Part shown: positions 6,385 through 32,691 of the stretch, piece after piece
How the letters are laid out: every line of letters starts with the position of its first letter
Position numbering within the stretch: position 1 is the stretch's first letter
Origin: a virus
Lineage: Duplodnaviria; Caudoviricetes
Virus record (IMG/VR): IMGVR_UViG_3300012983_000037
Coordinates: 1-64,000 of that record
Length of the DNA: 64,000 nucleotides
Strand: one strand, 5' to 3'
The notes under the pieces: model-generated
Databases searched by the model: none
Seen by the model: only the letters and a program-made list of their open reading frames with translations
Told to the model about the DNA's origin: nothing
Translations under genes and position numbers: made by a program

Positions 6385-7139
6385 TAGCTATACAAGGACA
6401 TCTAGATAGAGGAAATGAAGTAATTCAAATTCTTAAAAATTTAGGTGGTATAAATCGAATGAATCATAGTGGTCGTTACACTAACTACTTTTATTATATT
6501 AGTGGTGATGACAACACTATTGCATGGACTTGCATTCAACCACAGCATTTAGGTGTTTATACGTTAGAAGAGTTTGAGAAAAAATTCCCTCTTAAGATTG
6601 GTGAAACAGTAATCACCACACTAAATCATGTTGGAACAATAATAGGCATAACAAATGGGAAGTACAAAGTTCTGTTTAGAGAAGACAGTGCCTTAATTGC
6701 TCCACGTAGATTAAAATCTTATAAAGAAATGGAAAGAAATGTAACGCTTACTCTTGACAAAGCAAAGGAGTGGTATAACAAAGGTGGAGAACTCAGAGAG
6801 ATTGCTCTACAAGCTTTTACCAAAGAAGAATTAAATCCACTTCCTAGAAATTGGGAAGAGTACTGTAAACACACCTCAACACTTACAACCTCATTCAGCA
6901 GTTGTCCTAGATATGATGCTTTTGTCAAACTTGAACACCTGAGAGATTGTTGGTTAGATGGATGGAAACCTAAATGGGATGTTTCTCAAAAATGGTGTAT
7001 TCGTTTGTATAAGAACGAATTACATGTGGGATTATGCACAGATATATCTAGATTTCTTACATTCCCAACTAGAGAAATGGCTGAAGAGTTCCTTAAGTGT
7101 TTCAGGAATTTGATTGAATTAGCTAAAGATTTAATCTAA
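6381..7139 (+). CDS. hypothetical phage protein
   Basis: Likely start at ATG 6381 (ATGA overlap with the upstream stop); long ORF. Confidence 0.75.
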   Translation: MIAIQGHLDRGNEVIQILKNLGGINRMNHSGRYTNYFYYISGDDNTIAWTCIQPQHLGVYTLEEFEKKFPLKIGETVITTLNHVGTIIGITNGKYKVLFREDSALIAPRRLKSYKEMERNVTLTLDKAKEWYNKGGELREIALQAFTKEELNPLPRNWEEYCKHTSTLTTSFSSCPRYDAFVKLEHLRDCWLDGWKPKWDVSQKWCIRLYKNELHVGLCTDISRFLTFPTREMAEEFLKCFRNLIELAKDLI

Positions 7140-15080: not shown

Positions 15081-17555
15081 ATGCAATTTAAGGAAAAAGT
15101 ATTATACGATAGTTTTCCTAGACAGAGGCTTCCTGAGAAGAAGAAGACACCTAGATGGCGTGCTAAATGTGTTAATTGGGGAGCTGATAGAGATGTTTTA
15201 CATTTCTCCCCTGTAAGGAAGTCTGTTGAGCATAAGCAAATTAATTATGACCTCTTGAATGGTAAAATCCATATGTCAGACTTGAAGATGGTTGTAAATC
15301 CTCATAACATGACAGCTGGATATATACCAGAGAAGATTCAGCATTATCCTATAATTAACTCTAAACTAAGGGTATTACATGGAGAGGAATCTAAGAGAGT
15401 ATTTGACTATAGTGTTGTAGTAGTAAATCCTAATGCTATTACAGAGATGCAGGAAGCTAAGAAGCTAGAGATCCTAACTAAAATGCAGGGATTGATAGCT
15501 AATCCTAACATTTCTGAAGAGCAGTATCAAATGGAAATGGAAAAGCTTCAATACTATGCTAACTTTGAATACAAGGACTTTAGAGAGATTAGAGCAAATT
15601 CATTTGTAAAGCACTTCTCAAAAGAGCAGAACTTTAACCTTATTTTTAATAGTGGTTTTATGGATGCGATGACTGTAGGAGAAGAAATATATCAAGTATG
15701 TGTTATTCAAGGAGAGCCTACTCTTATTAAGTTAAATCCAAGAAAAGTTAGAGTTTATCAATCAGGATACTCTAATAAGATAGAGGATGCTGATATGATA
15801 GTCATTGAGGACTACTGGCCGCTAGGTAAGGTAGTTGATACATATCAAGATGTGTTAACAGATAGTGATCTTGACTACTTAGAAGAATTAGTATATAAAA
15901 CAGAAGATACTTCATTCTACCCAGATAATACTCAGTATGCATCCTATAATGTAGGAGGAAGACCTAGTCGCCCATCTAAAATTAATGTACTTAGAGAGAA
16001 TGAAGATGGTTTCTATTGGGAAGAGAAAGGTTTAACTGCTGAAGATTTATTCGGAGGAGATGAGACTATACATAGTACAAGTACACTTCCATATGACTTT
16101 TATGGTAATATAAAAGTGTGTCAGGTATTTTGGAAATCCCTCAGAAAGATTAAGAGAGTTAAATCTTATGATCCAATGACTGGAGAAGAAGTATTTACAC
16201 TTCATACAGAGCACTATATAACCAATAAAGAAAAAGGTGAGGAGGAAGATATATTCTGGATTAACGAAGCTTGGCAGGGTGTAAAGATTGGAGATAGAAT
16301 ATTTGTAAATATGGGACCATGTCCTATACAATTTAATTCAATGTCTAATCCATCAAAATGTCACTTTGGTATTATAGGATCAGTATACAATATCAATGAC
16401 GATCAGCCATTCTCTATGGTTGATATTATGAAGCCTTATAACTATCTTTATGATGTTGTGTATGATAACCTCATCAAGCTTCTTGCTAGAAACCATGGAA
16501 AATTAGTTAGATTAGACTTTGCTAAGATACCTGATAAATGGGGTATTGATAAGTGGTTAACAGTTCTTAAAACAGCTGGTGTTGTAGTGGAAGACTCATT
16601 CCAAGAAGGTAAGAGAGGAGCATCTTTAGGTAAGATGGCTGGAGCAATGAATAATGCCACTACAGGAGTTGTAGATGCTGAATTAGGCCAGTCAATTCAA
16701 TCAATGATCGCTCTACTAGAGTTCATAAAGAATGAGATGGCTGAAGTTGCTGGTATTTCTAAGCAGAGGGAAGGTCAAATCTCTAATAGAGAGACTGTAG
16801 GAGGTGTAGAGAGAGCAACACTTCAATCATCACATATTACTGAATGGCTGTTTATAGTCCATGATGATTTAAAGAAGAGAGTTATTGAGGCATTTATTGA
16901 AGTAGCAAAGGCTGCAAGTAGAGGAAGATCTCTTAAATTTCAATATATAGCACCTGACCATTCTCAAAGAGTAATGGAAATTGATGGAGATGAGTTTTCA
17001 GAATGCGATTATGGTTTAGTTGTAGATAATTCTCCAGAAACTCAGGAATTAAAAGCAAATTTACCTGGTTTAGTTCAAGCTGGACTTTCTAGTAAAATGA
17101 CTTCATTCTCTACTGCCATGAAGATATGGTCATCATCATCTATTGCTGAAAAGCAAAGAATGATTGAAAATGATGAAAGAACCATGCAGCAGCAAGCAGC
17201 TCAAGCACAACAGGCAGCACAGCAAGCAGAACAGCAGAAGATTGAGCACGAACTCAGACTTAAGACAATGGAACTTGAGCAGAATGATTTAATAAATCAG
17301 AGAGATAACGAAACTAAAGTTCTTATTGCAAATATACAAGCTAATGCTAAAATACAGTCAATCCAAGATACTGTTTCAGAAGAAGGTGAATCCAATATAG
17401 AGAGGGAGAGACTCGATGAGCAGATAAGAGAGTTTGATGAGAAACTAAAACTTGAAAAAGAAAAACTATCCTTAGAGAAGGATAAAGCAAAAACTGATGC
17501 TAGACTAAAAGAGAAACAAATAAATTCTAGACCTAAAACCACTAATAAGAAATGA
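15081..17555 (+). CDS. portal protein
   Basis: Follows terL; HYPIINSKL..L.GEE and GISKQREGQISNRETVGGVERA motifs; long C-terminal coiled coil; start moved to ATG 15081, downstream of the promoter. Confidence 0.9.
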   Translation: MQFKEKVLYDSFPRQRLPEKKKTPRWRAKCVNWGADRDVLHFSPVRKSVEHKQINYDLLNGKIHMSDLKMVVNPHNMTAGYIPEKIQHYPIINSKLRVLHGEESKRVFDYSVVVVNPNAITEMQEAKKLEILTKMQGLIANPNISEEQYQMEMEKLQYYANFEYKDFREIRANSFVKHFSKEQNFNLIFNSGFMDAMTVGEEIYQVCVIQGEPTLIKLNPRKVRVYQSGYSNKIEDADMIVIEDYWPLGKVVDTYQDVLTDSDLDYLEELVYKTEDTSFYPDNTQYASYNVGGRPSRPSKINVLRENEDGFYWEEKGLTAEDLFGGDETIHSTSTLPYDFYGNIKVCQVFWKSLRKIKRVKSYDPMTGEEVFTLHTEHYITNKEKGEEEDIFWINEAWQGVKIGDRIFVNMGPCPIQFNSMSNPSKCHFGIIGSVYNINDDQPFSMVDIMKPYNYLYDVVYDNLIKLLARNHGKLVRLDFAKIPDKWGIDKWLTVLKTAGVVVEDSFQEGKRGASLGKMAGAMNNATTGVVDAELGQSIQSMIALLEFIKNEMAEVAGISKQREGQISNRETVGGVERATLQSSHITEWLFIVHDDLKKRVIEAFIEVAKAASRGRSLKFQYIAPDHSQRVMEIDGDEFSECDYGLVVDNSPETQELKANLPGLVQAGLSSKMTSFSTAMKIWSSSSIAEKQRMIENDERTMQQQAAQAQQAAQQAEQQKIEHELRLKTMELEQNDLINQRDNETKVLIANIQANAKIQSIQDTVSEEGESNIERERLDEQIREFDEKLKLEKEKLSLEKDKAKTDARLKEKQINSRPKTTNKK

Positions 17556-18046
17556 TAAATACTTCTTTGACCGATTATATTAAAAAATACTCTAACAGTA
17601 GGACAATGGATACAGTAGTTATCCATTGTTCTGCTACTAAAGAGAATAAAGACTACTCTATTAAAGATATAAAGAAATGGCATCTTCAAAGAGGTTTTAA
17701 AGATGTAGGTTATCATTTTGTTATTAAACTTGATGGTACAATAGAAGTAGGTAGACCTCTAAATCAACAAGGTGCTCATGTGTCAGGACATAATTCATAT
17801 ACTATAGGTATATGTTATGTTGGAGGTTTGGACACCAACGGTAAACCTAAAGACACTAGAACTCCCGCACAAAAGGAATCTTTAAATAGATTAGTTGATA
17901 TGCTAAAAGATCTCATTACTATTAAAGCTATTAAAGGACATAGAGATTTTTCTAAAGACCTTAACGGCAATGGTAAAATAGATAAGAATGAATGGATTAA
18001 AGCATGTCCTTGTTTTGAAGTTAGTGATGAGTTTAATGTAAACTAA
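17552..18046 (+). CDS. N-acetylmuramoyl-L-alanine amidase (T7-lysozyme-type endolysin)
   Basis: IHCSAT, GYHF, GAHVSGHN, IGICYVGG, GHRD, KACPCF. Confidence 0.92.
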   Translation: MINTSLTDYIKKYSNSRTMDTVVIHCSATKENKDYSIKDIKKWHLQRGFKDVGYHFVIKLDGTIEVGRPLNQQGAHVSGHNSYTIGICYVGGLDTNGKPKDTRTPAQKESLNRLVDMLKDLITIKAIKGHRDFSKDLNGNGKIDKNEWIKACPCFEVSDEFNVN

Positions 18047-18133
18047 CACGGAAAGAAAAATAAGTGAATTACAATATCACTATTGTTAAAAGAAATAAAA
18101 ATAATAGAAAATAACAATTAAAATCATTTAATT

Positions 18134-18925
18134 ATGGCTAAAGAAATTGATAAGATTATTCAATCAAAAACAGCTCCTAAGAGTAATAATGTACTTTGGG
18201 ATGATGGCGAGAATTTAAAGATTAATAGAAATGGTAAGTGGGAGAGTACGGGTAGTGGAACCTCAGTACCTCAAGAAGTATTAGACACTATTGATTTTGG
18301 ATACTATACTTTTGCAAGTGGAAATATTGTAGCTAATTGGGGACCTTTTACTATTAAAGAGGGTGAGACTATTAAAGTAGATACAAATACATGGGCTGAA
18401 CCTGAATATATAAAAATTCATGATTATAGTGGAGTAGGTTATACAGAAAAAGGTACTATATTTGGACTTAACAAACGCCCAGATGGGACTTTAGGAGTTA
18501 TTGGTATAAATATTAAATTACAAGGTACTACTTTAGAAATATATAATAACAGTAATTTAGGAACAGTAACTATATCATTTTTAGCTTATAAAAAGCAAGT
18601 AATTAGTAATACTACGCATAGTATTTCTAGTGATTTACTCTCAGACTTAGAATTAAGGTCAGATATAGAAATAATACCAGGAGAGCACCCATATGAATTT
18701 TGGAAATTAATAGGAAAAAATGTTAATATATTTGATCGTCATAATTTTATATCCTATGGAGGTTTTTGTATTAATGTTAAAGAGGGATTTCACGATAACT
18801 ACAACGTGGTTTTCACAATAAATTTAGTAGATTTTCCAGATGTTAAAGTAATAAAAGTATACTTAGATAATAATTATTTAGTACAAAGTGTATCTTCAGA
18901 AGATAAAAAAATAACTGTTGTTTAA
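18134..18925 (+). CDS. putative head fibre/decoration protein
   Basis: N-terminal SKTAP...VLW...NGKW anchor-like segment, GSG linker and beta-rich body; located after the portal gene. Confidence 0.45.
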   Translation: MAKEIDKIIQSKTAPKSNNVLWDDGENLKINRNGKWESTGSGTSVPQEVLDTIDFGYYTFASGNIVANWGPFTIKEGETIKVDTNTWAEPEYIKIHDYSGVGYTEKGTIFGLNKRPDGTLGVIGINIKLQGTTLEIYNNSNLGTVTISFLAYKKQVISNTTHSISSDLLSDLELRSDIEIIPGEHPYEFWKLIGKNVNIFDRHNFISYGGFCINVKEGFHDNYNVVFTINLVDFPDVKVIKVYLDNNYLVQSVSSEDKKITVV

Positions 18926-18935
18926 TGATTTATTT

Positions 18936-19760
18936 ATGATATCAGTAATAATGTCTGCATATAATGCATCAAGCACTATCCTTAATGCTATAAATTCTGT
19001 ATTAGGTCAAACATATCAAGATATACAGCTAATTGTGATTAATGACTGTAGTACAGATAATACTCAATCAATAGTAAGTAATATTAATGATCCAAGAATC
19101 CTACTTATAAATAATGAGTATAATATGGGATGTGGAATGAGTAGAAGAATTGGACTATCTAAAGCTACAGGAGAATACATAACCTTTTTAGATTCTGATG
19201 ATTTTTATTCAAAAAACCATTTAGAAACTCTTATAAATGCTGCTAATGCCTTTCCTGATGCAGACATTATTCATTCTGGATTTAATATTGTATATAATAC
19301 TTATATAGACCCTAAAGTTCCTAGATTTAGAATAGAAACTGGTAATGATACTTTACATCCAAACGAAGTAGATACTAAAAGGTTTTTATGGCAAAATCTA
19401 ATTAAGAGGGAACTATTTGATAAAGTAGAATACAGTCATAGAAGATATATAGAAGATACTCCTACTTTGTTTAAATTGCTTTATTTAGCTAATAAAGTAA
19501 TTACTATAGAGCACTCTGGATATAATTGGGTACAAAGAGATGATTCTCTAACTCATACTAGTAGTATGGTGAAAAATGCTGTATATAGATGTTTGGCTGC
19601 AAAAGACATTATTGAATTCTTAAAAACTGAAAATAAAGGTTTTAGTTATAATGATCTTTATGACTGTCTGGAATGTCTAAAACCATATTTACAAACTTCT
19701 GAGATAAATAATTACCAAGAAGAGTTAGATGAATTAAAGCTCTTTCTAAAAGGACTATAG
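18936..19760 (+). CDS. family 2 glycosyltransferase (GT-A fold)
   Basis: ISVIMSAYN, INDCSTD, GEYITFLDSDD, IED; start moved to ATG 18936. Confidence 0.92.
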   Translation: MISVIMSAYNASSTILNAINSVLGQTYQDIQLIVINDCSTDNTQSIVSNINDPRILLINNEYNMGCGMSRRIGLSKATGEYITFLDSDDFYSKNHLETLINAANAFPDADIIHSGFNIVYNTYIDPKVPRFRIETGNDTLHPNEVDTKRFLWQNLIKRELFDKVEYSHRRYIEDTPTLFKLLYLANKVITIEHSGYNWVQRDDSLTHTSSMVKNAVYRCLAAKDIIEFLKTENKGFSYNDLYDCLECLKPYLQTSEINNYQEELDELKLFLKGL

Positions 19761-19775
19761 AATCTTAAATATACA

Positions 19776-20021
19776 ATGCTTAAAAAACTACTACAAACAG
19801 ATAAACTAACACATAATCTACTAAACTACTCAATACTATTAACACTAGCAATACTAGTAAACTATTGGGTAGGTTTAGTAGTATGTATTACATTAAGCTG
19901 TCTCAAAGAATTCCTTTGGGATAAGAAATTAAAGAAAGGTACTTATGAAGTAGCAGATTTAATTGCTAATGGATTAGGTATACTTGAAGCCACAATAATA
20001 TATTTAATATATATTTTATAA
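19776..20021 (+). CDS. small membrane protein (VanZ/YfiM-like DKxxH...KE...D pattern)
   Basis: DKLTH, KEFLWD and DLIANGLG between hydrophobic helices. Confidence 0.6.
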   Translation: MLKKLLQTDKLTHNLLNYSILLTLAILVNYWVGLVVCITLSCLKEFLWDKKLKKGTYEVADLIANGLGILEATIIYLIYIL

Positions 20022-20053
20022 AGTGAAAATATTTAATAAAAACTGTATAATAT

Positions 20054-20776
20054 ATGAAAAAGAAAGTTGGAGAATTATATGATAGACCAATAGTTATTGG
20101 TAATCCCAATGAAGTAAACAAAGATGAAATACTTTTAAAGAATACTGGTGGAGGGATTACTCTTTCTGAAAGAAAAGATGGTGAATTAGAAGATATTACT
20201 ACTACTCCTCCTAAATATCCTAGATGTTTTATTTGGTATGATAAAGGAAATGATGGTGATGTTGGAGAGCCAGTTCCTCTTCATTGTCATATAGGCAATA
20301 CTAGGCTTTTTGAAAATAACGATGGTATATTGGCGAGTAATTATATAATGTTTGATAGTGAACTTGTCGTTGGTTATGATAGTAGTATAAATGTTGATTC
20401 ATTTTTAAGTAGGCATAAAGGTAAATACAAAGAAATATCTTTAAAAGAATATATGGGAGAATGTCCAGAAGGAGATTTTGGAATTATTAAAATACCTATG
20501 CCTTATGATCAAAATGGACAAGTTATTTATACTTTGGTAGAAGATGAATTAAGTAAAAAACGTATTAATTATTTAAATAATAATGTAGAAAATAAATATA
20601 ATATAATACGAATATATGCATCAAAAGCTTTCAATAACAATTATTATTATGTCAATGTTAAATCTTATACAATAGATAAAGAAAATAATTGTATTGTGTT
20701 TGAAATAGAACAAATTCCACCACTTGATATGGCTACTCAAGTTAGAGTTTCTCTTGATGCAGAAGTCTTAAAATAA
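20054..20776 (+). CDS. putative head fibre protein
   Basis: N-terminal IVIGNPNEVNKDEILL recalls the crAss head-fibre capsid anchor (from memory); variable C-terminus. Confidence 0.55.
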   Translation: MKKKVGELYDRPIVIGNPNEVNKDEILLKNTGGGITLSERKDGELEDITTTPPKYPRCFIWYDKGNDGDVGEPVPLHCHIGNTRLFENNDGILASNYIMFDSELVVGYDSSINVDSFLSRHKGKYKEISLKEYMGECPEGDFGIIKIPMPYDQNGQVIYTLVEDELSKKRINYLNNNVENKYNIIRIYASKAFNNNYYYVNVKSYTIDKENNCIVFEIEQIPPLDMATQVRVSLDAEVLK

Positions 20777-20793
20777 CTAATCTATTTACCCTA

Positions 20794-20824
20794 TTGCAAA
20801 ATTCAAATATTTGTTTTACCTTTG
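20794..20824 (+). promoter_or_regulatory. Bacteroidota promoter, nearly leaderless transcript
   Basis: TTG 20794-20796, 20 nt spacer, TACCTTTG 20817-20824; ATG at 20829. Confidence 0.8.
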
Positions 20825-20828
20825 TGAA

Positions 20829-21437
20829 ATGAAAACTATAAAAACTATATTTTGGATATTTATAGGTGTTCTAATAATTAGTGTAATTGGTATGGCTAAA
20901 CACATATCAAATCTAAATGAAGAAATAGGAGTATATGATAATAACTTCAAGTCTTTAAATTTAGAGTTAAATGAATATGAGAAGCATGCAATAGCATATA
21001 AGTTTAGTGTAGAACAATTAAACTATATTAATGATTCAATTATTACTGAGTTAAATAATACTCGTAAACAATTGAAAATTAAAGACAAAGAGTTAAAGCA
21101 GTTACAAAGTATCAAAACAGAAGTTCATATAAGAGATAGTGTCTTCGTAAGAGACACTATCTTTAAAGAATCTTTTATTAGATTAGATACTCTATTAGGT
21201 GATGAGTGGTATAAAACTAAACTTACTTTAGAGTATCCTAATAAGATAGGTTTAGATATGACTTATAAAAGTGATATTAGTGTAATTGCTAGTACTCAAA
21301 AAGAGATTATAGGAACACCTAAGAAGTGTTTTATTGGGAGATGGTTTCAAAAGAAACAAAAGGTTATAAGAGTAGATGTAATGGACAATAACCCTTATAG
21401 TGAAATTAAAAGTAAAAAATTTGTAATTGTTGAGTAA
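20829..21437 (+). CDS. spanin-like lysis protein
   Basis: N-terminal TM helix, coiled coil, RDSVFVRDT, C-terminal NPY. Confidence 0.55.
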   Translation: MKTIKTIFWIFIGVLIISVIGMAKHISNLNEEIGVYDNNFKSLNLELNEYEKHAIAYKFSVEQLNYINDSIITELNNTRKQLKIKDKELKQLQSIKTEVHIRDSVFVRDTIFKESFIRLDTLLGDEWYKTKLTLEYPNKIGLDMTYKSDISVIASTQKEIIGTPKKCFIGRWFQKKQKVIRVDVMDNNPYSEIKSKKFVIVE

Positions 21438-21796
21438 TGGATTTATTAGTAACATCTATTATTGGAGTTGTGTGTACAGGATTATCTAGTCTTATAACAT
21501 GGTTGTTTACTAGACGAAAATATAACACTGAAGTAGATCATAACTCTATAGAGAACATGGGAGGTTCTCTTGAATTTTATGAGAGACTTACTGCTAGTAG
21601 TAATAAGATTTTAGCAGAAGTTTTAGAGAAGTCTGAAAAGTTAGCTCAGTCTAATGTTGAATTGTTAATTGAAGTTCAAAACCTTAGAGCTCAAATTGGT
21701 ATTCTTACAGAAGTAATTAAGAATGAGGTTGATAATTTAGACTTTGAAAAATATGGTATTAAAATTAATGAGGATGGAACTTTAATTAGATTGTAG
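21437..21796 (+). CDS. holin-like membrane protein
   Basis: N-terminal TM helix, RRKY, then coiled coil. Confidence 0.55.
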   Translation: MDLLVTSIIGVVCTGLSSLITWLFTRRKYNTEVDHNSIENMGGSLEFYERLTASSNKILAEVLEKSEKLAQSNVELLIEVQNLRAQIGILTEVIKNEVDNLDFEKYGIKINEDGTLIRL

Positions 21797-21797
21797 T

Positions 21798-21929
21798 ATG
21801 AAACAGAAAGTAGGTGAACTTTATGGAAAACCTGTTGTAGTAGGTAACCCAAATGAATTTGAAAAGCACGAGATTCCTTTGAATGATTTACTGGAAGGTA
21901 AATTGTCTTTAGAGGATGTTAAAGAGTAA
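21798..21929 (+). CDS. 43-aa paralogue of the N-terminus of 20054..20776
   Basis: MKQKVGELYGKPVVVGNPNEFEKHEI vs MKKKVGELYDRPIVIGNPNEVNKDEI; not in the ORF track. Confidence 0.8.
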   Translation: MKQKVGELYGKPVVVGNPNEFEKHEIPLNDLLEGKLSLEDVKE

Positions 21930-21934
21930 TAATT

Positions 21935-22057
21935 ATGGCAAAGAAAACTAAAGCTAGAAAAGTAACAATAGCTCCTAAACTAATACCTAGAGCAGGAGTA
22001 ACTAAAAACCCTAAACAATCCTATAAGTGTGGAGGAAAAATCAAGACAGCTAAATAG
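21935..22057 (+). CDS. 40-aa basic peptide ending in YKCGGKIKTAK
   Basis: Clean ATG-to-TAG ORF with AATTATGG start context; not in the ORF track. Confidence 0.65.
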   Translation: MAKKTKARKVTIAPKLIPRAGVTKNPKQSYKCGGKIKTAK

Positions 22058-22415
22058 AAATTTGTATTTCATAGAGATTAAGCTATTAAAGATATTACCT
22101 TCTTTAATAGCTTTAATTTACTTTATTAATATTATACTTAATTTAACTGGTGTTAATTTAAATTCATTGAGTTATCTTGCAGGAATGTCTTTTATTCCAC
22201 TACTGTTTATGTATATTTCTTCTTATGTATTTCAGTTTTGTGAGTACCACAGACTACCATTACATTATATATTAATTACCGATTTGTTAAGTATAATAGG
22301 ATATGAATTTGAAATATCTGTAGATGTTTGGTTATATATAGTAATACACAGTATACTGTTTGGTTTAAGTATTGCTATAGCACTATATTTATATTTAAAA
22401 GATAAAAGCATATAA
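22029..22415 (+). CDS. multi-pass membrane protein
   Basis: About four hydrophobic helices, FCEYHRLPLHY motif. Confidence 0.75.
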   Translation: MEEKSRQLNRNLYFIEIKLLKILPSLIALIYFINIILNLTGVNLNSLSYLAGMSFIPLLFMYISSYVFQFCEYHRLPLHYILITDLLSIIGYEFEISVDVWLYIVIHSILFGLSIAIALYLYLKDKSI

Positions 22416-22422
22416 TCACAAT

Positions 22423-22758
22423 ATGAGAAATCTCATTAATAAATTACTTGATACTTCTTTGAGGGAGTTCCTAATATCTAACTCTAACCTTACAGAAGAA
22501 GATATGTGCACAGTAGTTGATAAATTTCTAGATATCATAGATACTTTAAATGCTAATAAAGAAAAGCAGAAAGAGTATTGTAGGACAGAAGCTTATCAAT
22601 ACTTAAGGATAAGCAGATCTTCTTTTGATTCTAAGGTTAATAACGGTATTCTCCCTAAAGGTCATAAAGTCCCTGGTAAAGGTCCTGTATGGTATAAAAA
22701 AGATTTAGATGAATATCTTAAGAAATATGACAGGAAATTAAAAGTATCATTGGAATAA
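22423..22758 (+). CDS. excisionase/AlpA-like helix-turn-helix protein
   Basis: EAYQYLRISRSSFDSKVNNGILPKG...WYKKDLDEY. Confidence 0.75.
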   Translation: MRNLINKLLDTSLREFLISNSNLTEEDMCTVVDKFLDIIDTLNANKEKQKEYCRTEAYQYLRISRSSFDSKVNNGILPKGHKVPGKGPVWYKKDLDEYLKKYDRKLKVSLE

Positions 22759-22767
22759 AAATACCTG

Positions 22768-22804
22768 AAAAACCCTATCTAGAGTAATCTAGGTAGGGTT
22801 TTTT
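22768..22804 (+). terminator. intrinsic terminator, possibly bidirectional
   Basis: AAAAACCCTATCTAGA-gtaa-TCTAGGTAGGGTTTTT. Confidence 0.85.
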
Positions 22805-22811
22805 GGTATAA

Positions 22812-22843
22812 TTAGTTTTTGTGAAAAATGTTACATATGTTTG
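22812..22843 (+). promoter_or_regulatory. Bacteroidota promoter with degenerate -33
   Basis: TATGTTTG 22836-22843, with TTAG 20 nt upstream. Confidence 0.6.
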
Positions 22844-22895
22844 CAGTCGTAAGCTTACAGAAAGAAAAAAAACCTAAAACTTAAACTGAAAAACT

Positions 22896-23681
22896 ATGGA
22901 CATTATTGAAAAAGAGACTGTAAAAGAAGTTCCTGTAGAGTATTGGCAGAAGCACTATGGCTGCTGCGATAACTATAAGTGGAATACAGGACATGCTCCT
23001 TTTGCTTCAAGAGGAGTAGCAGGTGCTGGTTTAGGCCTTGGAATTGCAGGTACTGCATTAGGACTACTTGCACTTAGTAGAAATGGTGGATTTAACCTTT
23101 TTGGAAATGGGGGCTCTTCTCCTGAGAATGTAAACATTAATACTGTTGGAGGTTCTCCTATAGCTCCTACAGCATTTGATGTTTGGGCTAAAGAGAGTAC
23201 TGACATTTTTAATGCTCAAAAGGCACTCTATGATTATGCTCTATTAGATCAAAGTCAGAGATTTACTGACAGACAGACTCTCAACTCTGAGTTATTTGGA
23301 GTATACAAGAGTCAGATTGATGCAGACTTTGGACTATACAAGTCACAGAGAGATGCTAATGATTTAACTAATGCTAGATTAACTAACGAAGTATTCAGCC
23401 TTTATAAGAGTACTAGAGATGAAGATGACTCTATTAGAAAAGAGCTATGTGACCTTAAGGCTCAAGTTGCTATTAATTCTGCTATCAGACCTTATCAGGA
23501 TAAACTCATCCAGTGTGAGATTGACAAAGCATTTACTGCAGGCATTAATTATACAAACAGCAAAACCTGCAATGTGCTGTACGGTCAAGTAGTACTTCCT
23601 AGCACCCCAACTATAACTGGTTATGCTGGTGCTAACAGATGTGGTTGTCCTATGGTAGTTGCTGCAGAAGCAGGTGCTTAA
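22896..23681 (+). CDS. glycine-zipper/coiled-coil protein of unknown function
   Basis: GVAGAGLGLGIAGTALGLLAL, three FxxYKSxxD repeats, Cys-rich ends. Confidence 0.8.
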   Translation: MDIIEKETVKEVPVEYWQKHYGCCDNYKWNTGHAPFASRGVAGAGLGLGIAGTALGLLALSRNGGFNLFGNGGSSPENVNINTVGGSPIAPTAFDVWAKESTDIFNAQKALYDYALLDQSQRFTDRQTLNSELFGVYKSQIDADFGLYKSQRDANDLTNARLTNEVFSLYKSTRDEDDSIRKELCDLKAQVAINSAIRPYQDKLIQCEIDKAFTAGINYTNSKTCNVLYGQVVLPSTPTITGYAGANRCGCPMVVAAEAGA

Positions 23682-23695
23682 TTTAACTATTCAAT

Positions 23696-24169
23696 ATGAT
23701 GCCAATAAACCAAATTACTATTGGAGGAGACCCATTATTAGGTACACCAAGCTATAATATAGAAGAGCAGTTAAGACAACTAGAAGCTAGAAAACAAGCT
23801 CTAGAGTCTATGAAACAACTGAACCCTCAAGCTATACAGCAATCTGTACTATGGGACTCAATAGATTCTGAAATAAAAGTTCTATCCCAAGATCAATTAT
23901 CTAGATTATTTGAAAATCAAGAATACATAGCTACCTATACAAGAATACAAGAGTTGGTTAACACTGAAATAATAAACTTAGTAAAAGCTAGAATTGAAAA
24001 TACCACTGAAGGAAAACAACTACTACAAGAGCAACTTAATATAATAAGAAAAATGAAACCAACTATAATAGAAGAAACAAATAGAGAGGTAGAACTTTTT
24101 AAGAGGTTTAGGGAGTACAGCAAAAACAATCCTAATATAACATACGAAGAATTTATTAAAGCAAAATAA
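23696..24169 (+). CDS. helical Gln/Glu-rich hypothetical protein
   Basis: 157 aa ORF. Confidence 0.8.
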   Translation: MMPINQITIGGDPLLGTPSYNIEEQLRQLEARKQALESMKQLNPQAIQQSVLWDSIDSEIKVLSQDQLSRLFENQEYIATYTRIQELVNTEIINLVKARIENTTEGKQLLQEQLNIIRKMKPTIIEETNREVELFKRFREYSKNNPNITYEEFIKAK

Positions 24170-24171
24170 TT

Positions 24172-24546
24172 ATGAATATAGATACACTACATAAGTTATT
24201 TGGAGAATTTGTAGATACCAAACTTAATAGTTTTTGCACTACTAACCCTATGCTACAACTATTTAAACCTGTTATTAAGAGAGTTATAAATGTAAATTTT
24301 AGTAAGATACATTCAAAACTTTCTATACTAGCAGATGTAAATGGTGATATAGATGTAAAAGGCATATTGCCTGAGATGATTGATAATATAAAGAATATGG
24401 AACCATACACAATCCAAACAGAAGCTATCGGAGATATAATAATTGGTAAAGGTAGCATCATATTGAATATACCTATGACAGATAGAAGGTTGGTTATCAA
24501 TACATCTGATCTAGAAGAATTAAAAAACTTAATAAACAGCAACTGA
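24172..24546 (+). CDS. hypothetical protein
   Basis: 124 aa ORF. Confidence 0.8.
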   Translation: MNIDTLHKLFGEFVDTKLNSFCTTNPMLQLFKPVIKRVINVNFSKIHSKLSILADVNGDIDVKGILPEMIDNIKNMEPYTIQTEAIGDIIIGKGSIILNIPMTDRRLVINTSDLEELKNLINSN

Positions 24547-24547
24547 T

Positions 24548-25060
24548 ATGGAAGACTATTTATTGATGGAACTTTTAAAGACTAAGAGTAAAATGGACCC
24601 AGAGTTCAACTCTAAGTTAACTGAATATATAAGAAGTGGTAAAATGGATACTGAAATCCATAATGCTAGAGGAAGGAGATATATGAGAAACTATACTCAA
24701 AGCCAGCATTATATGCCTCAAATAGAAGAAGAGCATTTTGATGAGGAGATGGCTAAATCTATAGTAGAATCTATGCATCATATGGAGGATAATAACAAGG
24801 TAGTATCAGGAGAACACTTCTCAATGTTCAAAGCTAATAGTGTATGTGAAACATATAAGAAGATGTATCACCTTGATATAACTCCTGAAGATGTTTATGT
24901 AGCTATTAATGCTCAGTACCATGACTACTCTAAGTTATTTAAATCTTGGTTTGGATCTAATATAGATAGTAAAATAATTGAATCTGCAATCTGCTTCTGG
25001 TTTAAAGATGTAGATTATGACAAGGGTTCTAAATTATGGAACTATTTTCAAGACCTATAA
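24548..25060 (+). CDS. His-rich hypothetical protein
   Basis: HFDEEMA, GEHFS, YVAINAQYHDY, WFKDVD, KLWNYF. Confidence 0.8.
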   Translation: MEDYLLMELLKTKSKMDPEFNSKLTEYIRSGKMDTEIHNARGRRYMRNYTQSQHYMPQIEEEHFDEEMAKSIVESMHHMEDNNKVVSGEHFSMFKANSVCETYKKMYHLDITPEDVYVAINAQYHDYSKLFKSWFGSNIDSKIIESAICFWFKDVDYDKGSKLWNYFQDL

Positions 25061-25061
25061 C

Positions 25062-25100
25062 AGTAGTGGGTAAGGGAAACCTTATCCACTATTCTTATTT
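25062..25100 (+). terminator. intrinsic terminator
   Basis: AGTAGTGGGTAAGG-gaaa-CCTTATCCACTATT followed by a T-rich tail. Confidence 0.75.
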
Positions 25101-25148: not shown

Positions 25149-25179
25149 TTGATTCTGTTTTTATTTTACCATATATTTG
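25149..25179 (+). promoter_or_regulatory. Bacteroidota promoter
   Basis: TTG 25149-25151, 20 nt spacer, TATATTTG 25172-25179. Confidence 0.8.
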
Positions 25180-26376: not shown

Positions 26377-27888
26377 ATGGTAAAGTTACAAAAATTTCAG
26401 ACTAAGACTTTTGAGGGTTGGGCTACAGAGATTACTAAGAGAAATCACATTGACAGTCTCTATGGCAAGAACCCACAAGGTGTTGCTAATTTTATGATTC
26501 AGCTCCTTGCTAGAAACTTTGGTAATTCACTTGAAACAGTACTTAGCAAGTACCCTACTAAAGAATTCGAGGATGATACTGAATTTTACTGGGATGTTAT
26601 TGGATCAGCAAGAAGGAACATTCCTCTTGTAGAGGCAAGAACAATGACTGGTGAGACTATTACTCCTGAATTTGAGGGTATGGTAGGTGCAGGTGGAGAG
26701 CAGTTCTACCTTGTATTTAATGAGCATTGGTTCTTTGATGGTGAGGAAATCTTTGGTGAACTCAATCATGTTTATCCAATGTTAATTAAGGGTAAGCCAA
26801 CTATGGAGGGTACTAAGTATGTATATCTTGTAGAGCTTGCTAATGGTTCTAGAAAGGGTATGCCTGCTGAGAGACTCCTTGCAGGTGAGAGATTCTCTTA
26901 TGCATTTGCTCCTGTAGAAAGAGGCCTTTCTAAGGAAGTTGGTGGTGTTAGATATACTACTCCTTCTAAGATGAGAAATGAGTTCTCTATGATTAGAATT
27001 CATGATGAGGCTTCTGGTGATGTTTACAACAAGAAGATTGCTATGGGTGTTCCTGTAACTGTTAATCAGAATGGTAAGCAGGTTAAGACTACTGTTAATA
27101 AGTGGATGCACCTTTGGGAGTATACATTTGAGCAGACTTGGAGAGAGTATAAGAATAACCTCTATGCATGGTCAGTTTCTAACAGAAACGAGAATGGTGA
27201 CTACATGAACTTTGGTAAGTCAGGTGAGGTTATTAGAAAGGGTGATGGTCTTTATGCACAGCTTGAGAGAGGTAATGTATTCTATTTCAATAAGTTCTCT
27301 CTTAAGTATCTTGAGAGCATTCTCTTAACTATTGCATCTACTAAGATGGAGTCTAATGAGAGATCATTCCTCATTAGAACAGGTAGCTGGGGTGCAGTTG
27401 ACTTCTCTAAGGCAGTAAAGGCTGAGGCTTCAGGTTGGACTATGTTTGACTACAATGGTGATAGCCTTGGTATAATTAAGAGAAATGGTGAGGGTACATA
27501 TACTGCAGTTAATCCACAGTTTACTGAGTATATTGGACCAATGAATATTAGAGTTAAGGTTGAGGTAGATGACTTCTACGATGATCCTGTAAATAACAAG
27601 ATTGATTTCCCAGGTGGTGAGGGTAAGGCTATGTCTCACAGAATGGATATCTTCTTTGAGGGATCTATGGGTCAGCCAAATATCTTCAAGTGTGGTATTA
27701 AGGGTCAGCCTACTGAGGGCAGAAGCTACAGATGGGGTATTAGAAACCCTTACACTGGACAGTGGGATAATCCTTACATGTCATTTACTGATGATAAGGC
27801 TGAGGTACACAGAATGGGACAGTTTGGTGTTTGTGTATTAGATCCAACTAGAACTGTTGCACTTATACCTTCAATTCTTAAGGCGTAA
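26377..27888 (+). CDS. major capsid protein (crAss-type HK97 fold)
   Basis: 503 aa; YWDVIGSARRNIPLVEAR, YMNFGKSG and GVCVLDPTRT match the phiCrAss001 MCP as recalled; strong high-expression codon bias. Confidence 0.92.
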   Translation: MVKLQKFQTKTFEGWATEITKRNHIDSLYGKNPQGVANFMIQLLARNFGNSLETVLSKYPTKEFEDDTEFYWDVIGSARRNIPLVEARTMTGETITPEFEGMVGAGGEQFYLVFNEHWFFDGEEIFGELNHVYPMLIKGKPTMEGTKYVYLVELANGSRKGMPAERLLAGERFSYAFAPVERGLSKEVGGVRYTTPSKMRNEFSMIRIHDEASGDVYNKKIAMGVPVTVNQNGKQVKTTVNKWMHLWEYTFEQTWREYKNNLYAWSVSNRNENGDYMNFGKSGEVIRKGDGLYAQLERGNVFYFNKFSLKYLESILLTIASTKMESNERSFLIRTGSWGAVDFSKAVKAEASGWTMFDYNGDSLGIIKRNGEGTYTAVNPQFTEYIGPMNIRVKVEVDDFYDDPVNNKIDFPGGEGKAMSHRMDIFFEGSMGQPNIFKCGIKGQPTEGRSYRWGIRNPYTGQWDNPYMSFTDDKAEVHRMGQFGVCVLDPTRTVALIPSILKA

Positions 27889-28915: not shown

Positions 28916-29602
28916 ATGACTTTAGAAGAATTTAGCTTAGAGTTTGATATTCTATATAATAATATTACATCTAATCAAGCTCCTGGATTAAGTGAACTAG
29001 AGAAGAGTATATTCTTAACACAGGCTCAAGAAGCTATTGTAAAGCAATATTATAAGGGTAATTTAGAACAGTCTTTTGAAAACACTGAAGAAGTTACAGA
29101 GTATTTAAACACTCTTGTATCTCAAAAGAAGTATCTTGAAAAGGATAAAATTGCTAACAGTCCATCAATACTTCTCAGTAGTAAACATTACAGTTCAGTA
29201 TTTAATCTTCCAGATGATGTAATGTTTATTACTTATGAGTCCGCTTCAGTTTATACAAAAACTGGATCTCTTGTACCTTCTGCTACTAAAGCAGTTTTAG
29301 TAGTGCCTACTACTCAAGATGAATTCTTCAATATTCATAAAAATCCTTTTAGAGGCCCTAGTAAAAATAGAGCAGTTAGATTAATTGCAGGAGATAAGAT
29401 TGAGGTTATATCAGCTAATCCTATTAAAGAATATCTTGTAAGGTACATAAGGCTTCCTAAGCCTATAGTTCTTCCAGGTGCTGATGAGATAAAGCCTTAT
29501 AGTGAATACTCTGATGGTTTAAATACTGAATTACCAGAGTCAGTTCATAGAAACATTTTAATGCAAGCAGTAGCTTTAGCAAAAGCTTCATGGGCTTCAT
29601 AA
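28916..29602 (+). CDS. tail ring protein
   Basis: EFDILYNNITSNQAPGL..EKSIFLTQAQE, NPFRGP, YLVRYIRLP.PI, ELPESVH..I...AV. Confidence 0.75.
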   Translation: MTLEEFSLEFDILYNNITSNQAPGLSELEKSIFLTQAQEAIVKQYYKGNLEQSFENTEEVTEYLNTLVSQKKYLEKDKIANSPSILLSSKHYSSVFNLPDDVMFITYESASVYTKTGSLVPSATKAVLVVPTTQDEFFNIHKNPFRGPSKNRAVRLIAGDKIEVISANPIKEYLVRYIRLPKPIVLPGADEIKPYSEYSDGLNTELPESVHRNILMQAVALAKASWAS

Positions 29603-29635
29603 AACATATATAACAATTTTAATATTAAATAAGTT

Positions 29636-30616
29636 ATGAATTTTTCAACAAATCAAGTAATGCAGCTGTTTGTACTAGGAGAGAATGAAGCAGCTGAAGT
29701 AAAGAAGGTTATAGTTCCTGGTGGTAACCCAGAAAACTTTGATGATGTAAAGGGATTCCTTATTCAGGTTCTTAATGAAGAGGGTGAAGTTATTGATGTA
29801 ACTGACTTTATAGAGAAGGCTAACATTCTCTCAATTACAGAGTCAGCTGCTAGGGATAATGTTCTCTATAGAAAGGGACTTCCTGTAGCTCTTAGCTCTG
29901 AGGTTAATGGTGGTAAGCCAGTAAAGGGTGAGGAGTATGTAATGACTCTTGTATACAGAGGCTTCGGAGAGGAAGATACTTATTCTAAGGTATTTTCAGC
30001 AAAGGCTACTGATGAAAACCCTGCAACACTTCTTAAGGCACTAGCTAAGAATATGTTAGCTAACCTTGATGTAGAGTATTCACCTCTTTATGAGCTTTAC
30101 ACAGGTGAGGGTGTAAAGATCACTATGGCTAATTATGAGACTGCTGTAACTGCAGAGGGATTCTGTATTGTAGAACCAGTTCCTTATTGGTCACTTGGTA
30201 GATTTGCAGAGACTCTGATGACTATTGATGTGCATACTGCACCAATAACTCTTGATGGAGAGGATGAAAATGCTTGGTTAGCATATTATAAGTTTATGCC
30301 TCTTCAAGGAGAGATTGTAGAAGGCCTTCCTAACTCAAAGAGAATTGCAGACCTTGAGTATTTCTGCAAGGGTGAGAGAGGTACTTCTAATGCTCTTGTT
30401 GGATGGCCTGATACTCCTGATTATGTAGCTAAGGTTAACCCTAAGTCTGCTAATGGATATGATATCCTTACTATTCACTATGCTTATGTAGGACCTAATG
30501 CTTCTAATCAGAAGAGCGAGAAGGATCTTATCTTTGTATCAGAGGCAGGATCAAATGTAGAACAGGGTCTTAACTATATTAAGACTATGATTACAACTGG
30601 ACAGACTCCTAACTAA
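29636..30616 (+). CDS. auxiliary capsid protein
   Basis: FSTNQV..LFV, IADLEYFCKGERG, IHYAYVG..QKSEKD; same codon bias as MCP. Confidence 0.7.
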   Translation: MNFSTNQVMQLFVLGENEAAEVKKVIVPGGNPENFDDVKGFLIQVLNEEGEVIDVTDFIEKANILSITESAARDNVLYRKGLPVALSSEVNGGKPVKGEEYVMTLVYRGFGEEDTYSKVFSAKATDENPATLLKALAKNMLANLDVEYSPLYELYTGEGVKITMANYETAVTAEGFCIVEPVPYWSLGRFAETLMTIDVHTAPITLDGEDENAWLAYYKFMPLQGEIVEGLPNSKRIADLEYFCKGERGTSNALVGWPDTPDYVAKVNPKSANGYDILTIHYAYVGPNASNQKSEKDLIFVSEAGSNVEQGLNYIKTMITTGQTPN

Positions 30617-30654
30617 TCAGCATAATAATTTATTCTACATAAATTAATTGTTTA

Positions 30655-30709
30655 AATTCTTGTTAGTTTAAGATATTATATATATCTTTGCTAGCAAGAA
30701 TTTTTTTTT
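30655..30709 (+). promoter_or_regulatory. promoter embedded in a terminator-like inverted repeat
   Basis: TTG 30660-30662 and TATCTTTG 30683-30690 lie inside AATTCTTGTTAG...CTAGCAAGAATT followed by a T run. Confidence 0.7.
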
Positions 30710-30725
30710 ATTTAATAGTACTGTT

Positions 30726-31496
30726 ATGTCAAAAGTTTCAGAATTAGTTTCAATGGTTGTCGATTTAGTAAAGATAATGAGTGATGACTCTACTATCAAT
30801 GAGAACCATGTAATGTATTTATTGGGAGTATATAGAGCATTCCTTCTTAAACAAAGATATGAGAAGGACCCTAGAAGAACTATACCAGAGTCTAACTATC
30901 AAGTTAAGACTTTATCTTTTACAACAAAAGATTACCAACACGATGTAGATGTTTGCTCTAAAGGATGTTATACAGATGAAGAAGGAAATGAGGTTTGTGA
31001 TTGCTCATTAACTTCTGAAAAAATTTTAGTAAGTACTTCAGAACTTCCTACTATTATAAGTTTAGGTATTCCAAGAATGTATACAAATAGTGGACCTTTT
31101 AATTATACATTTACTAAAGTACCAATGTCTAGATTTGAAGTAGTTGGTAATAATAAGTGGTTGTCTAAATTTATATATTGGACAATAGGTCCTGATAATA
31201 AAATATACATTAAATCAGGAAGTAATACTTGTGCTTTAAAACTAACATCAGCAAATATAATGGCTATATTTGAAGATTGTTCAGATTTAGAAGAGGAGGA
31301 TAATTTCCCTATAGAAGAGGCTTTAATTCCTAATTTATTAGAGCTAGTGGTTAAAGATATTCTTGGATCTACATTAAGACCTAAAGATAGAGATAATAAT
31401 GCATCTGATGACCTTGCTAATATTGCTGCATTTGTAAGACAGAATATGAAGGATAGGTATGTAAAGGATACTCAAACAACTGCTAAGGATGCTTAG
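30726..31496 (+). CDS. tail ring protein
   Basis: MSDDS...YRAFLLKQRY, FPIEEALIP.L.ELVVK, PKD..NNASDDL; synteny. Confidence 0.7.
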   Translation: MSKVSELVSMVVDLVKIMSDDSTINENHVMYLLGVYRAFLLKQRYEKDPRRTIPESNYQVKTLSFTTKDYQHDVDVCSKGCYTDEEGNEVCDCSLTSEKILVSTSELPTIISLGIPRMYTNSGPFNYTFTKVPMSRFEVVGNNKWLSKFIYWTIGPDNKIYIKSGSNTCALKLTSANIMAIFEDCSDLEEEDNFPIEEALIPNLLELVVKDILGSTLRPKDRDNNASDDLANIAAFVRQNMKDRYVKDTQTTAKDA

Positions 31497-32004
31497 AGAT
31501 TTTAAGACATCAATAAAAAGATCTAATACTAAGAAAGAACATAAGATAACAGCCTCTCTTGGAATGAGAGAGGCTTTTAGATACTACACTAAAAAATCCA
31601 AATCTCTTAGTGAAAAAGATTTTAGAAGAGTTATTAGATATATTAACAGTATTCTACAAGAGTCCTTAGCATTAGGAGAAGATATAAATCTTCCTTGTAG
31701 AATGGGAAGACTTGAACTTAGGAAGTTTAAAACATCTGTCTCTTTTAAAGATGGTAAAATGATAACTAACCTTCCTATAGATTGGGATGAGACATTAAAT
31801 CTTTGGTATGAGGATAAGGAATCCTTCAAAGAAAAAAGAAAAGTAAGAATGGAAGTACCTGAAGTATTTAGAGTATACTATAAGAAAAGTACTGCTAATT
31901 ATAATAACAAATCATTCTTTACTTTTAAGGTTAATAGGGATTTAAAACAGAAGTTAAAAACAAATATAATTAATAAAAAGGTAGATGCCTTTCTAGTAAA
32001 TTAA
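31489..32004 (+). CDS. IHF-like DNA-binding protein
   Basis: GEDINLPCRMGRLELRK...F.F..NR.LK; typical position in the crAss tail module. Confidence 0.7.
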   Translation: MLRDFKTSIKRSNTKKEHKITASLGMREAFRYYTKKSKSLSEKDFRRVIRYINSILQESLALGEDINLPCRMGRLELRKFKTSVSFKDGKMITNLPIDWDETLNLWYEDKESFKEKRKVRMEVPEVFRVYYKKSTANYNNKSFFTFKVNRDLKQKLKTNIINKKVDAFLVN

Positions 32005-32005
32005 T

Positions 32006-32689
32006 ATGGAACATAGATCTATAAACATAAAACAATTAATAGATAAGGTAAGAAGACATCCTATGATGGCTGACTTATCTATGGAAGCTATAGTTGATTA
32101 TGCTGTAGACTTCCTTCAAATAGTTGGACTTCCAACAGCATTTATGGAGAATACTGCAGTAGTTGAAATCAAAAACTATAAAGGTGAATTACCTAGTGAC
32201 TATATGGAGATGGTTCAGGTTAGAACTACTACTAATCCAGTAGTGTATTATAGATATACATCTGATACATTCCATAAGAGTAGTAATAAAGTCCACTCAG
32301 CACCTTATACTTATAAGGTTCAAGGTAATTACATTTTTACATCTGAGAAGGATACTACCATAGAAATAGCTTACTTAGCTATAGAAACTGATGAATGTGG
32401 ATTACCTGTACTTCCAGATAATGCTAAATTTATAAGGGCTATAGAAGCTTATATTAAGTATAAGCATTTCACAGTATTATTTGATTGTGGTAAAATTACA
32501 GGTAATATTTTAGAAAAAGCAGACCAGGAGTATTGTTGGGCAGTAGGTGCTTGTCAATCAGAGTTTAATAGACTTACTCTAGATAAAGCAGAAACAGTGC
32601 TTAATATACTTAATAATATATTCTCCCCTACAGACTTACACAGCAATGGTTATGCTAATATGGGAGATAAAGTAATCATAAGGAGGTAA
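32006..32689 (+). CDS. tail tubular/ring protein (portal adaptor type)
   Basis: IEIAYLAIETDECGLPVLPDN...AIEAYIK; immediately before the muzzle gene. Confidence 0.75.
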   Translation: MEHRSINIKQLIDKVRRHPMMADLSMEAIVDYAVDFLQIVGLPTAFMENTAVVEIKNYKGELPSDYMEMVQVRTTTNPVVYYRYTSDTFHKSSNKVHSAPYTYKVQGNYIFTSEKDTTIEIAYLAIETDECGLPVLPDNAKFIRAIEAYIKYKHFTVLFDCGKITGNILEKADQEYCWAVGACQSEFNRLTLDKAETVLNILNNIFSPTDLHSNGYANMGDKVIIRR

Positions 32690-32691
32690 TT

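Follow-up and report, generated by a model that had tools for sequence, protein, structure and literature searches.

The question raised by this locus is what a block of four tightly packed genes, set between the lysis and capsid genes of a crAss-like phage, contributes to the phage that carries it. The block occupies positions 22896 to 25060 of a 64,000-nucleotide stretch of DNA (hereafter the window), which comprises positions 1 to 64,000 of the IMG/VR virus record IMGVR_UViG_3300012983_000037, and its genes are here called g1 to g4. Our analysis firmly supports the view that the block is a self-contained, autonomous operon, strongly conserved yet optional, that is exchanged between unrelated Bacteroides phages. 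We read it as the form in which Bacteroides phages carry a wider family of gut-phage cassettes ending in a DUF7841 protein, and as lying outside the core crassvirus particle and life cycle. As to its function, we tentatively read the block as a horizontally mobile, moron-like accessory operon that might act on the envelope of the infected cell late in infection, which we regard as a possible rather than a probable answer.

A sequence-only reading of this DNA had described six open reading frames (ORFs), a terminator on either side of the four-gene block and a promoter with a non-consensus -33 element. All six ORFs are present, folding confirmed both terminators, and the features run as follows.

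22029-22415, plus strand: small membrane protein of 128 amino acids (aa) with three hydrophobic segments, a loose companion of the cassette
22423-22758, plus strand: excisionase/MerR-type helix-turn-helix (HTH) protein of 111 aa, a candidate regulator with weak profile matches
22761-22809, plus strand: intrinsic terminator closing the membrane/HTH unit, 17-bp core stem and T-run, -29.5 kcal/mol
22812-22843, plus strand: Bacteroides-type promoter of g1, with the -7 box TAtgTTTG at 22836-22843
22849-22858, no strand assigned: candidate operator, a perfect 10-bp palindrome GTAAGCTTAC at about the transcription start
22896-23681, plus strand: g1, 261 aa
23696-24169, plus strand: g2, 157 aa
24172-24546, plus strand: g3, 124 aa
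24548-25060, plus strand: g4, 170 aa, a DUF7841 protein
25062-25093, plus strand: intrinsic terminator closing the cassette, 14-bp stem, -20.8 kcal/mol; the next promoter lies at 25172

The motifs named in that reading were likewise all found, namely the Gly zipper, YGCCD, RCGCP and the three F.(V/L)YKS..D repeats of g1, the Gln-rich stretch of g2, DVNGDID of g3 and the HFD, HH, EHFS and YHDY of g4.

The -7 box sits 60 nt upstream of the g1 start, and the same box, there followed by a C, occurs at 25172, 30683 and 37814, before the operons of the gp31-like protein and major capsid protein (MCP), of ring protein 2 and of the cargo protein. At these three sites a TTG lies exactly 20 nt upstream of the box, and it is here that g1 has TTAG, which accounts for the non-consensus -33 already noticed. 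By this layout the cassette appears to be wired like the late structural operons. The layout of TTG, 20 nt and TAnnTTTGC is also seen at 1052, 1092, 4540 and 9686, and 11 of the 41 plus-strand matches to TAnnTTTG fall within the intergenic 13% of the sequence. The promoter and the terminators are predicted from sequence motifs; contigs from RNA-labelled libraries span relatives of the block and cannot show transcription, ends or strand.

The palindrome at the presumed start site has a single exact copy in the window, and the window's other late promoters do not have it. Versions of 12-14 bp stand at the same position in eight loci (L013, L017, L018, L023, L024, L025, L071 and L072), other lineages have the different palindromes TGTAATAGCTATTACA, TATAGTAGCTACTATA and TGTAGTTCAAACTACA at an equal distance from g1, and the Bacteroides fragilis phage BF1-TP2 has a GC-rich hairpin there. 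Given that palindromes with arms of at least six turn up in about 30% of random 90-nt windows, a single one carries little weight, and the argument lies in the fixed position across lineages. As RNA, the g1 leader is predicted to be unstructured (-0.1 kcal/mol), so that in this window the palindrome is more likely a protein-binding site.

That similar cassettes recur in gut phages had been put forward already, and this is borne out by locus scans. A scan with g4 returned 109 viral contigs, from which 80 loci were kept, and in these g1, g2 and g3 always lie upstream of g4, in the same order, wherever they can be detected. A census with hidden Markov models (HMMs) over the 69 loci with sufficient upstream sequence found all four genes in order in 51, partial sets in ten and g4 alone in eight. 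The four genes therefore co-occur elsewhere in a fixed order. Prototypical p-crAssphage (Carjivirus communis; KP06_gp61-58), cr106_1, cr85_1, cr111_1 and bajarodcaudo virus 1 have the same genes as the window, in the same order and with similar sizes, and the HMM expectation values (E) for g1 to g4 against these equivalents are 5.5e-109, 1.2e-68, 5.3e-38 and 8.8e-78. Public labels for them, such as 'putative tail protein' and 'nuclear pore complex-like protein', have no experimental basis in the records.

The cassette is found in at least four genomic settings. It precedes the gp31-like and MCP genes in the window, in cr106_1 and in 22 of the 80 loci; in p-crAssphage, by contrast, it stands among the tail-fibre genes rather than beside the capsid, with no membrane/HTH pair upstream. 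In a third setting (locus L097) it lies between fibre and lysis genes, upstream of the latter; here a 128-aa ORF at 8840-9223 carries a lipoprotein-type signal (LSLCSC) at its N-terminus and a hydrophobic segment at its C-terminal end, the layout of a unimolecular spanin, and takes the place of the LysB-like gene. The fourth setting is the distal end of the late operon of BF1-TP2, where all four genes follow, in order, an endolysin and an HTH gene. This phage, 68 kb long and of lambdoid type (Erf, NinB, RusA, Rha, DUF5309 capsid), does not have a crass MCP, and in it g1 is conserved over its full length, N-terminus included, and the N-terminal peptide of g2 is kept. A DnaA_C-type HTH gene and a pair encoding a HATPase and a DUF4325 (STAS-like) protein lie directly upstream of its cassette (L086/L087, record positions 22666-24371) and look like further accessory cargo. 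Across lineages, lysis genes are found near the DUF7841 locus in four: the window, Suoliviridae cr109_1, BF1-TP2 and the Clostridia locus L105 described below. A motif search of about 185,000 species genomes gave nine hits, mostly short or crass-sized contigs in bins of metagenome-assembled genomes of non-host taxa, and no evident integrated prophage.

The cassette is also dispensable and replaceable. ΦcrAss001 has no DUF7841 anywhere in its genome and holds gp29 (head fibre) and gp30 (endolysin) at this site, and in DAC15 the cassette was not matched by tblastn. In crAss002 (L084, MN917146) only the C-terminal half of g4 is left, in an unannotated gap at record positions 33175-33339 between gp_23 and gp_24, with its motif intact and no start codon, behind a 1,197-aa gene; this remnant is the trace of a recent event in which that gene took the place of g1-g3 and half of g4. 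Locus L026 has an HFD-like head-fibre gene and a small zincin-like ORF in place of g1, and locus L040 has two large fibre-like genes (849 aa and 635 aa) in place of g1-g3. The zincin-like ORF (6311-6610, 99 aa) carries a HEAEH motif, and KP06_gp56 of p-crAssphage, two genes after the cassette, is annotated as zincin-like. In Suoliviridae cr109_1 the DUF7841 gene stands alone, directly after holin and LysB-like genes. It follows that g1 can be exchanged while g2-g4 remain, and that g4 often stands by itself.

The membrane/HTH pair upstream, which the sequence-only reading had named together with the operon, is a loose companion and not a fixed part of it: the pair was detected in 21 of the 80 loci, and in L017-L021 lysis genes lie between it and g1. 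The HTH protein matches Pfam HTH_17 below the cut-off (E 0.0085), phrog_668 (8.8e-5) and phrog_9834, 'excisionase and transcriptional regulator' (5e-3). In a bovine gut library, contigs pass directly from 21790 to 22402 and from 21938 to 22406, from which it follows that close relatives lack the 43-aa ORF discussed below, a 40-aa basic ORF and the membrane ORF and have kept the HTH gene. The lineage is seen in animal gut samples. What stands of the self-contained operon is the separate transcription unit, the co-occurrence of its four genes and their lack of likeness to characterised capsid, tail, replication or lysis proteins.

The genome around the block is complete, with a length of 99,869 bp and direct terminal repeats. 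Its crAss-like identity is given by the MCP at 26377-27888 (Pfam Crass_capsid, 1e-144), and a Pfam scan placed a tail ring 3/4 protein at 28916-29602. Homologues of the ΦcrAss001 portal, gp27, gp28, gp31, MCP and gp33 are present in the window in the expected order, as are those of its ring, auxiliary capsid, IHF, muzzle and cargo proteins. The block is accordingly flanked, as had been read from the sequence, by lysis genes (homologues of gp27 and gp28, 20811-21796) on one side and the gp31-like and MCP genes on the other, and the LysB-like gene, the gp27 homologue, is separate from it at 20811-21437. An amidase-type endolysin lies at 17552-18046, immediately 3' of the portal gene. At E 1e-3 the window holds no homologue of the ΦcrAss001 tail fibres gp22-26, of THA/THB, of HFT gp21 (tblastn) or of the endolysin gp30, the other 36 kb of the genome not having been searched for fibres; the remark on fibres concerns 15024-22000 and 29600-32700 of the window. 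We had considered the cassette as a substitute tail hub or fibre dock in place of THA/THB and rejected this, as THA homologues co-occur with it in cr106_1, cr85_1, cr111_1, cr112_1, cr128_1, bajarodcaudo virus 1 and Dulem virus 41. Directly 3' of the gp28 homologue, in the place that gp29 has in ΦcrAss001, a 43-aa ORF (21798-21929) consists only of the capsid-binding N-terminal motif of a dimeric head fibre of the gp29 type, G(D/N)PNE...EIL. It has the appearance of a remnant head-fibre gene, truncated when the block of membrane, HTH and cassette genes was inserted. A full-length head-fibre copy of 240 aa lies at 20054-20776, upstream of the lysis genes.

Turning to the proteins themselves, g1 has a Gly-zipper hydrophobic segment at residues 41-59, a Gly-rich linker, a long predicted helix at 93-216 that carries the F.LYKS.RD repeats, and a Cys-bearing tail. 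All full-length members keep the hydrophobic segment, with a mean hydropathy of 1.4-1.8 over 19 residues, and four Cys columns beyond it are conserved in 13-15 of the 17 sequences; the alignment further shows two alternative C-terminal tips within the family. Relatives of g1 form at least 3,232 clusters at 90% identity. Sequence and profile searches found no Pfam, PHROG or PDB match for it, and the ESM Atlas returned only its own phage clusters, under automatic names such as 'tail protein' and 'DUF5320'. The monomer model has a predicted local distance difference test (pLDDT) of 53 and was for this reason left out of the fold search. The codon bias of g1 lies near that of the gp31-like and gp33-like genes, and g2 and g3 rank low, but codon bias is a weak gauge of expression here because the reference ring proteins score low too. 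A comparison of g1 with g2 as possible paralogues within the cassette showed no relation.

Next in the operon, g2 consists of a near-invariant N-terminal peptide (P.NQ..LGG.DPLL), a Gln-rich linker and a conserved C-terminal region, and beyond a weak phrog_24449 hit it has no family match; its composition is what has led others to call it 'nuclear pore complex-like'. The N-terminal peptide bears a loose likeness to the G(D/N)PNE motif of HFD, and we considered it as a capsid anchor of the head-fibre type; this was set aside, since BF1-TP2 keeps the peptide too and does not have a crass capsid. The small g3 is conserved throughout its length, its relatives form 381 representative clusters at 50% identity, and it gave no PDB, Pfam or PHROG match and nothing usable from the ESM Atlas. 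None of g2, g3 and g4 has a hydrophobic segment. A complex prediction for g2, g3 and residues 55-170 of g4 scored 0.00, a value that tells nothing about binding in either direction.

The anchor gene of the cassette is g4. It is a member of Pfam DUF7841 (PF25223; 108.5 bits, E 3e-31, and 110.2 bits in the genome scan, against a gathering cut-off of 25.2 bits), a family with no assigned function, and it has a single copy in the genome. A variable N-terminus, Arg/Gly-rich in most relatives, precedes the C-terminal DUF7841 domain, in which 26 columns of the alignment are invariant, AINAQYHDY among them; its relatives form at least 1,543 clusters at 90% identity, and among the matches listed for the g1, g3 and g4 families the longest contigs are crass-sized. 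The model (pLDDT about 90 for residues 60-170) is a helical bundle with a small hairpin, for which Foldseek found no match in the PDB. In a wide VIA fold search the highest Z was 5.4, for a DUF3069 protein, so that no clear structural relative emerged, and BFVD returned only further DUF7841 proteins.

Searches with all four proteins were equally silent on function. Against all PDB chains (phmmer and profiles) no crassvirus chain, and hence no modelled ΦcrAss001 virion protein, was matched, g4 providing the sole usable model for fold comparison with virion chains. There was no NCBIfam match, and the PADLOC defence models gave only noise-level hits to Cas models (E 1e-3 to 8e-3). The statement that none of the genes looks like a capsid, tail or replication protein stands, and can be widened to characterised lysis proteins. 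Our literature search found no paper that mentions BF1-TP2, DUF7841 or KP06_gp61, and the preprint on culturing p-crAssphage does not treat genes of the KP06_gp61-58 type.

How might such an operon act on the envelope? Host RNA polymerase would transcribe it late, from the promoter type of the structural operons, possibly gated through the start-site palindrome. The Gly-zipper segment of g1 would enter the cytoplasmic membrane and g1 would self-associate, placing a helical stalk of about 18 nm with a cysteine-bearing tip outside the cytoplasm; g2, g3 and g4 would remain cytoplasmic. The assembly may then act on the envelope, most likely in the timing of lysis or the exclusion of further phages. 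Given that full-length g1 and the N-terminal peptide of g2 are conserved in BF1-TP2, whose capsid is unrelated, a role directed at the host is favoured over a particle-specific one; the hydrophobic segment of g1, its conserved cysteines and the recurrent proximity of lysis genes point the same way. The sequence-only reading had inferred an oligomeric or membrane-inserting assembly, and the architecture of g1, with its borderline Gly zipper and long helix, fits that part; for the uses it had suggested (superinfection exclusion, lysis control, a toxin or a protective matrix) there was no direct support.

Several observations weigh against an envelope function. The segment of g1 is of borderline hydrophobicity and its flanking charges are balanced (+2/+2), so that the topology of g1 is not predictable. 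The promoter is of the same type as those that drive the virion genes, and Intestiviridae carry the block within their tail-fibre region. That g1 has given way to a head-fibre gene in L026, and g1-g3 to large fibre-like ones in L040 and crAss002, could mean that cassette and fibres are functionally equivalent. The virions of ΦcrAss001 are disulfide-stabilised and contain a cargo protein, gp45, for which a transmembrane helix is predicted (PMC10172136); cysteines and a membrane-type segment are therefore also compatible with a particle protein. The proximity of lysis genes may reflect no more than a permissive insertion site.

Many of these points lead to the main rival, in which the cassette is an accessory virion module, g1 being a fibrous appendage or an ejected, membrane-inserting particle protein and g2-g4 its partners or assembly helpers. 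We consider this a serious if somewhat less likely answer; the late-type promoter, the hypervariable fibre-lysis-capsid region in which the block lies and the substitution of g1 by an HFD-like gene, or of g1-g3 by the 849-aa and 635-aa genes (L040) or gp_22 (crAss002), would all suit it. A long helix with two alternative C-terminal tips is what receptor-binding proteins have, the conserved cysteines of g1 recall the disulfides of ΦcrAss001 virions and its hydrophobic segment the helix of gp45, one Clostridia cassette (L107) lies between capsid-like and connector-like genes, and codon bias points weakly the same way. Yet the proteins match no modelled ΦcrAss001 virion protein in sequence, and the cassette is absent from ΦcrAss001 and was not matched in DAC15. 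In BF1-TP2, moreover, capsid and tail are unrelated, and an attached protein as fully conserved as g1 would need a phage-specific adaptor; nor would the cassette supply an alternative hub, since it co-occurs with THA.

The remaining explanations are weaker than either an envelope or a particle role. Low-complexity proteins could form a transient scaffold or condensate that aids late assembly and is not retained in the particle; the block does directly precede the scaffold-like gp31 gene and the MCP gene, here and in 22 of the 80 loci, under a late promoter, and parts of three of its proteins are of low complexity (rich in Gly in g1, in Gln in g2 and, among relatives of g4, in Arg/Gly); g2 owes its nuclear-pore label to its composition. 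In p-crAssphage and BF1-TP2, however, it is distant from the capsid genes, cultured crassviruses can dispense with it, and a membrane-type segment would be unexpected in a scaffold, which makes this an unlikely answer. It is less likely still that the block carries defence, counter-defence or toxin-antitoxin genes that help the phage against its rivals or the immunity of the host. Its moron-like insulation and patchy distribution, its position after the HATPase/DUF4325 pair in BF1-TP2 and the Clostridia L105 cassette after lysis-type membrane genes would be in keeping with that, but there was no meaningful PADLOC match, no enzyme or toxin family was recognised in g1-g4, the motif scan places the cassette essentially in phage genomes only, and four conserved genes with low-complexity linkers are unlike the known small anti-defence proteins. 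The least probable reading, to which we give very little credence, makes g4 a sigma-region-2-like protein that binds RNA polymerase and works with the upstream HTH protein. It derives from the wide fold search, in which at least 14 of the best 50 rows are sigma-factor region-2 chains over g4 residues of about 77-160, at a Z of 3.5-4.1; Clostridia cassettes begin with a Sigma70_r4-like protein, and a Suoliviridae homologue has been labelled by others 'RNA polymerase sigma factor/ubiquitin-like'. Such Z values are nevertheless far below what is meaningful for helical bundles, the top match is the unrelated DUF3069 protein, and none of the 23 members of the g4 family alignment matches Pfam Sigma70_r2 or related models even at E up to 1; g1-g3 would also be left unexplained.

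In favour of an envelope role we also count that DUF7841 closes a parallel cassette in Clostridia prophages; when 301 genomes from one Clostridia order were sampled, 6 proved to have it. The prophage cassettes at L105 (after lysis-type membrane genes) and L107 have the order Sigma70_r4-like HTH, PHROG 21718 low-complexity protein, a protein of about 110 aa, PHROG 16490 protein, Cys-rich protein and Arg/Gly/Tyr-rich DUF7841 protein. Their PHROG 16490 protein, of about 235 aa, combines a Gly-zipper segment with the Gly-rich 'RNGGLFGGG', with helices and with a Cys-bearing tail. They resemble the Bacteroides cassette in having DUF7841 as the last gene, with an Arg/Gly/Tyr-rich N-terminus, a Gly-zipper/Cys-tail protein and a small HTH gene upstream; they differ in that only DUF7841 is demonstrably homologous and the HTH is of another type. 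Between g1 and PHROG 16490 there was no PHROG hit, with a BLASTP E of 4.5 and an hhalign E of 0.15, which makes the two architectural look-alikes only, and no counterpart of g2 or g3 could be detected among the Clostridia cassette proteins. One might speculate, and we hold this to be doubtful, that the cassettes ending in DUF7841, whether from Bacteroides, crAss-like or Clostridia phages, form a single ancient system that spans phyla, in which a membrane-anchored Gly-zipper stalk and low-complexity partners, made late, would govern the end of the infected cell or its sharing (timing of release, exclusion, carrier or plasmid persistence). If true, late phage functions would gain a new class, and one borne by the virus that is most abundant in the human gut.

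Whichever function is right, these four genes are conserved in prototypical crAssphage and thousands of gut phages, yet they are labelled 'hypothetical' or carry unsupported names. That they are optional, mobile and share their anchor gene with Clostridia cassettes points to a host-directed role that is general among gut phages, with a possible bearing on the non-plaquing, persistent lifestyle of crassviruses. As the cassette is complete in the cultured BF1-TP2 of Bacteroides fragilis, its function is directly testable.

Among known systems, the DUF7841 family covers one gene of the four, and also occurs alone (in the eight such loci of the census and in Suoliviridae cr109_1) and in the Clostridia prophages. 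The morons of lambdoid phages (bor, lom) are close to the cassette in organisation. Like them it has, as judged from its sequence, its own promoter and terminator inside a late operon, is patchy among relatives and has moved between unrelated phages of one host group, as its presence in BF1-TP2 indicates. It departs from them in having four conserved genes rather than one and a promoter of the same type as those of the neighbouring late operons; nor is it known to be linked to host fitness. For a possible mode of working, the i-spanins (lambda Rz, P2 LysB), the lysis inhibition proteins RI/RIII of T4 and the T4 proteins Imm/Sp offer a comparison, which is not a claim of membership. There is no sequence or fold relation between these and g1, and the phage already has a LysB-like gene. 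A two-component spanin needs an adjacent or embedded gene for a partner lipoprotein, and the cassette has none, g2-g4 being free of hydrophobic or signal segments; the hydrophobic segment of g1 also starts at about residue 40. What g1 would share with these envelope-acting late and exclusion proteins is a bitopic outline, in which an anchor at the N-terminus is followed by a helical stalk outside the cytoplasm and by cysteines, and a gene position close to the lysis genes.

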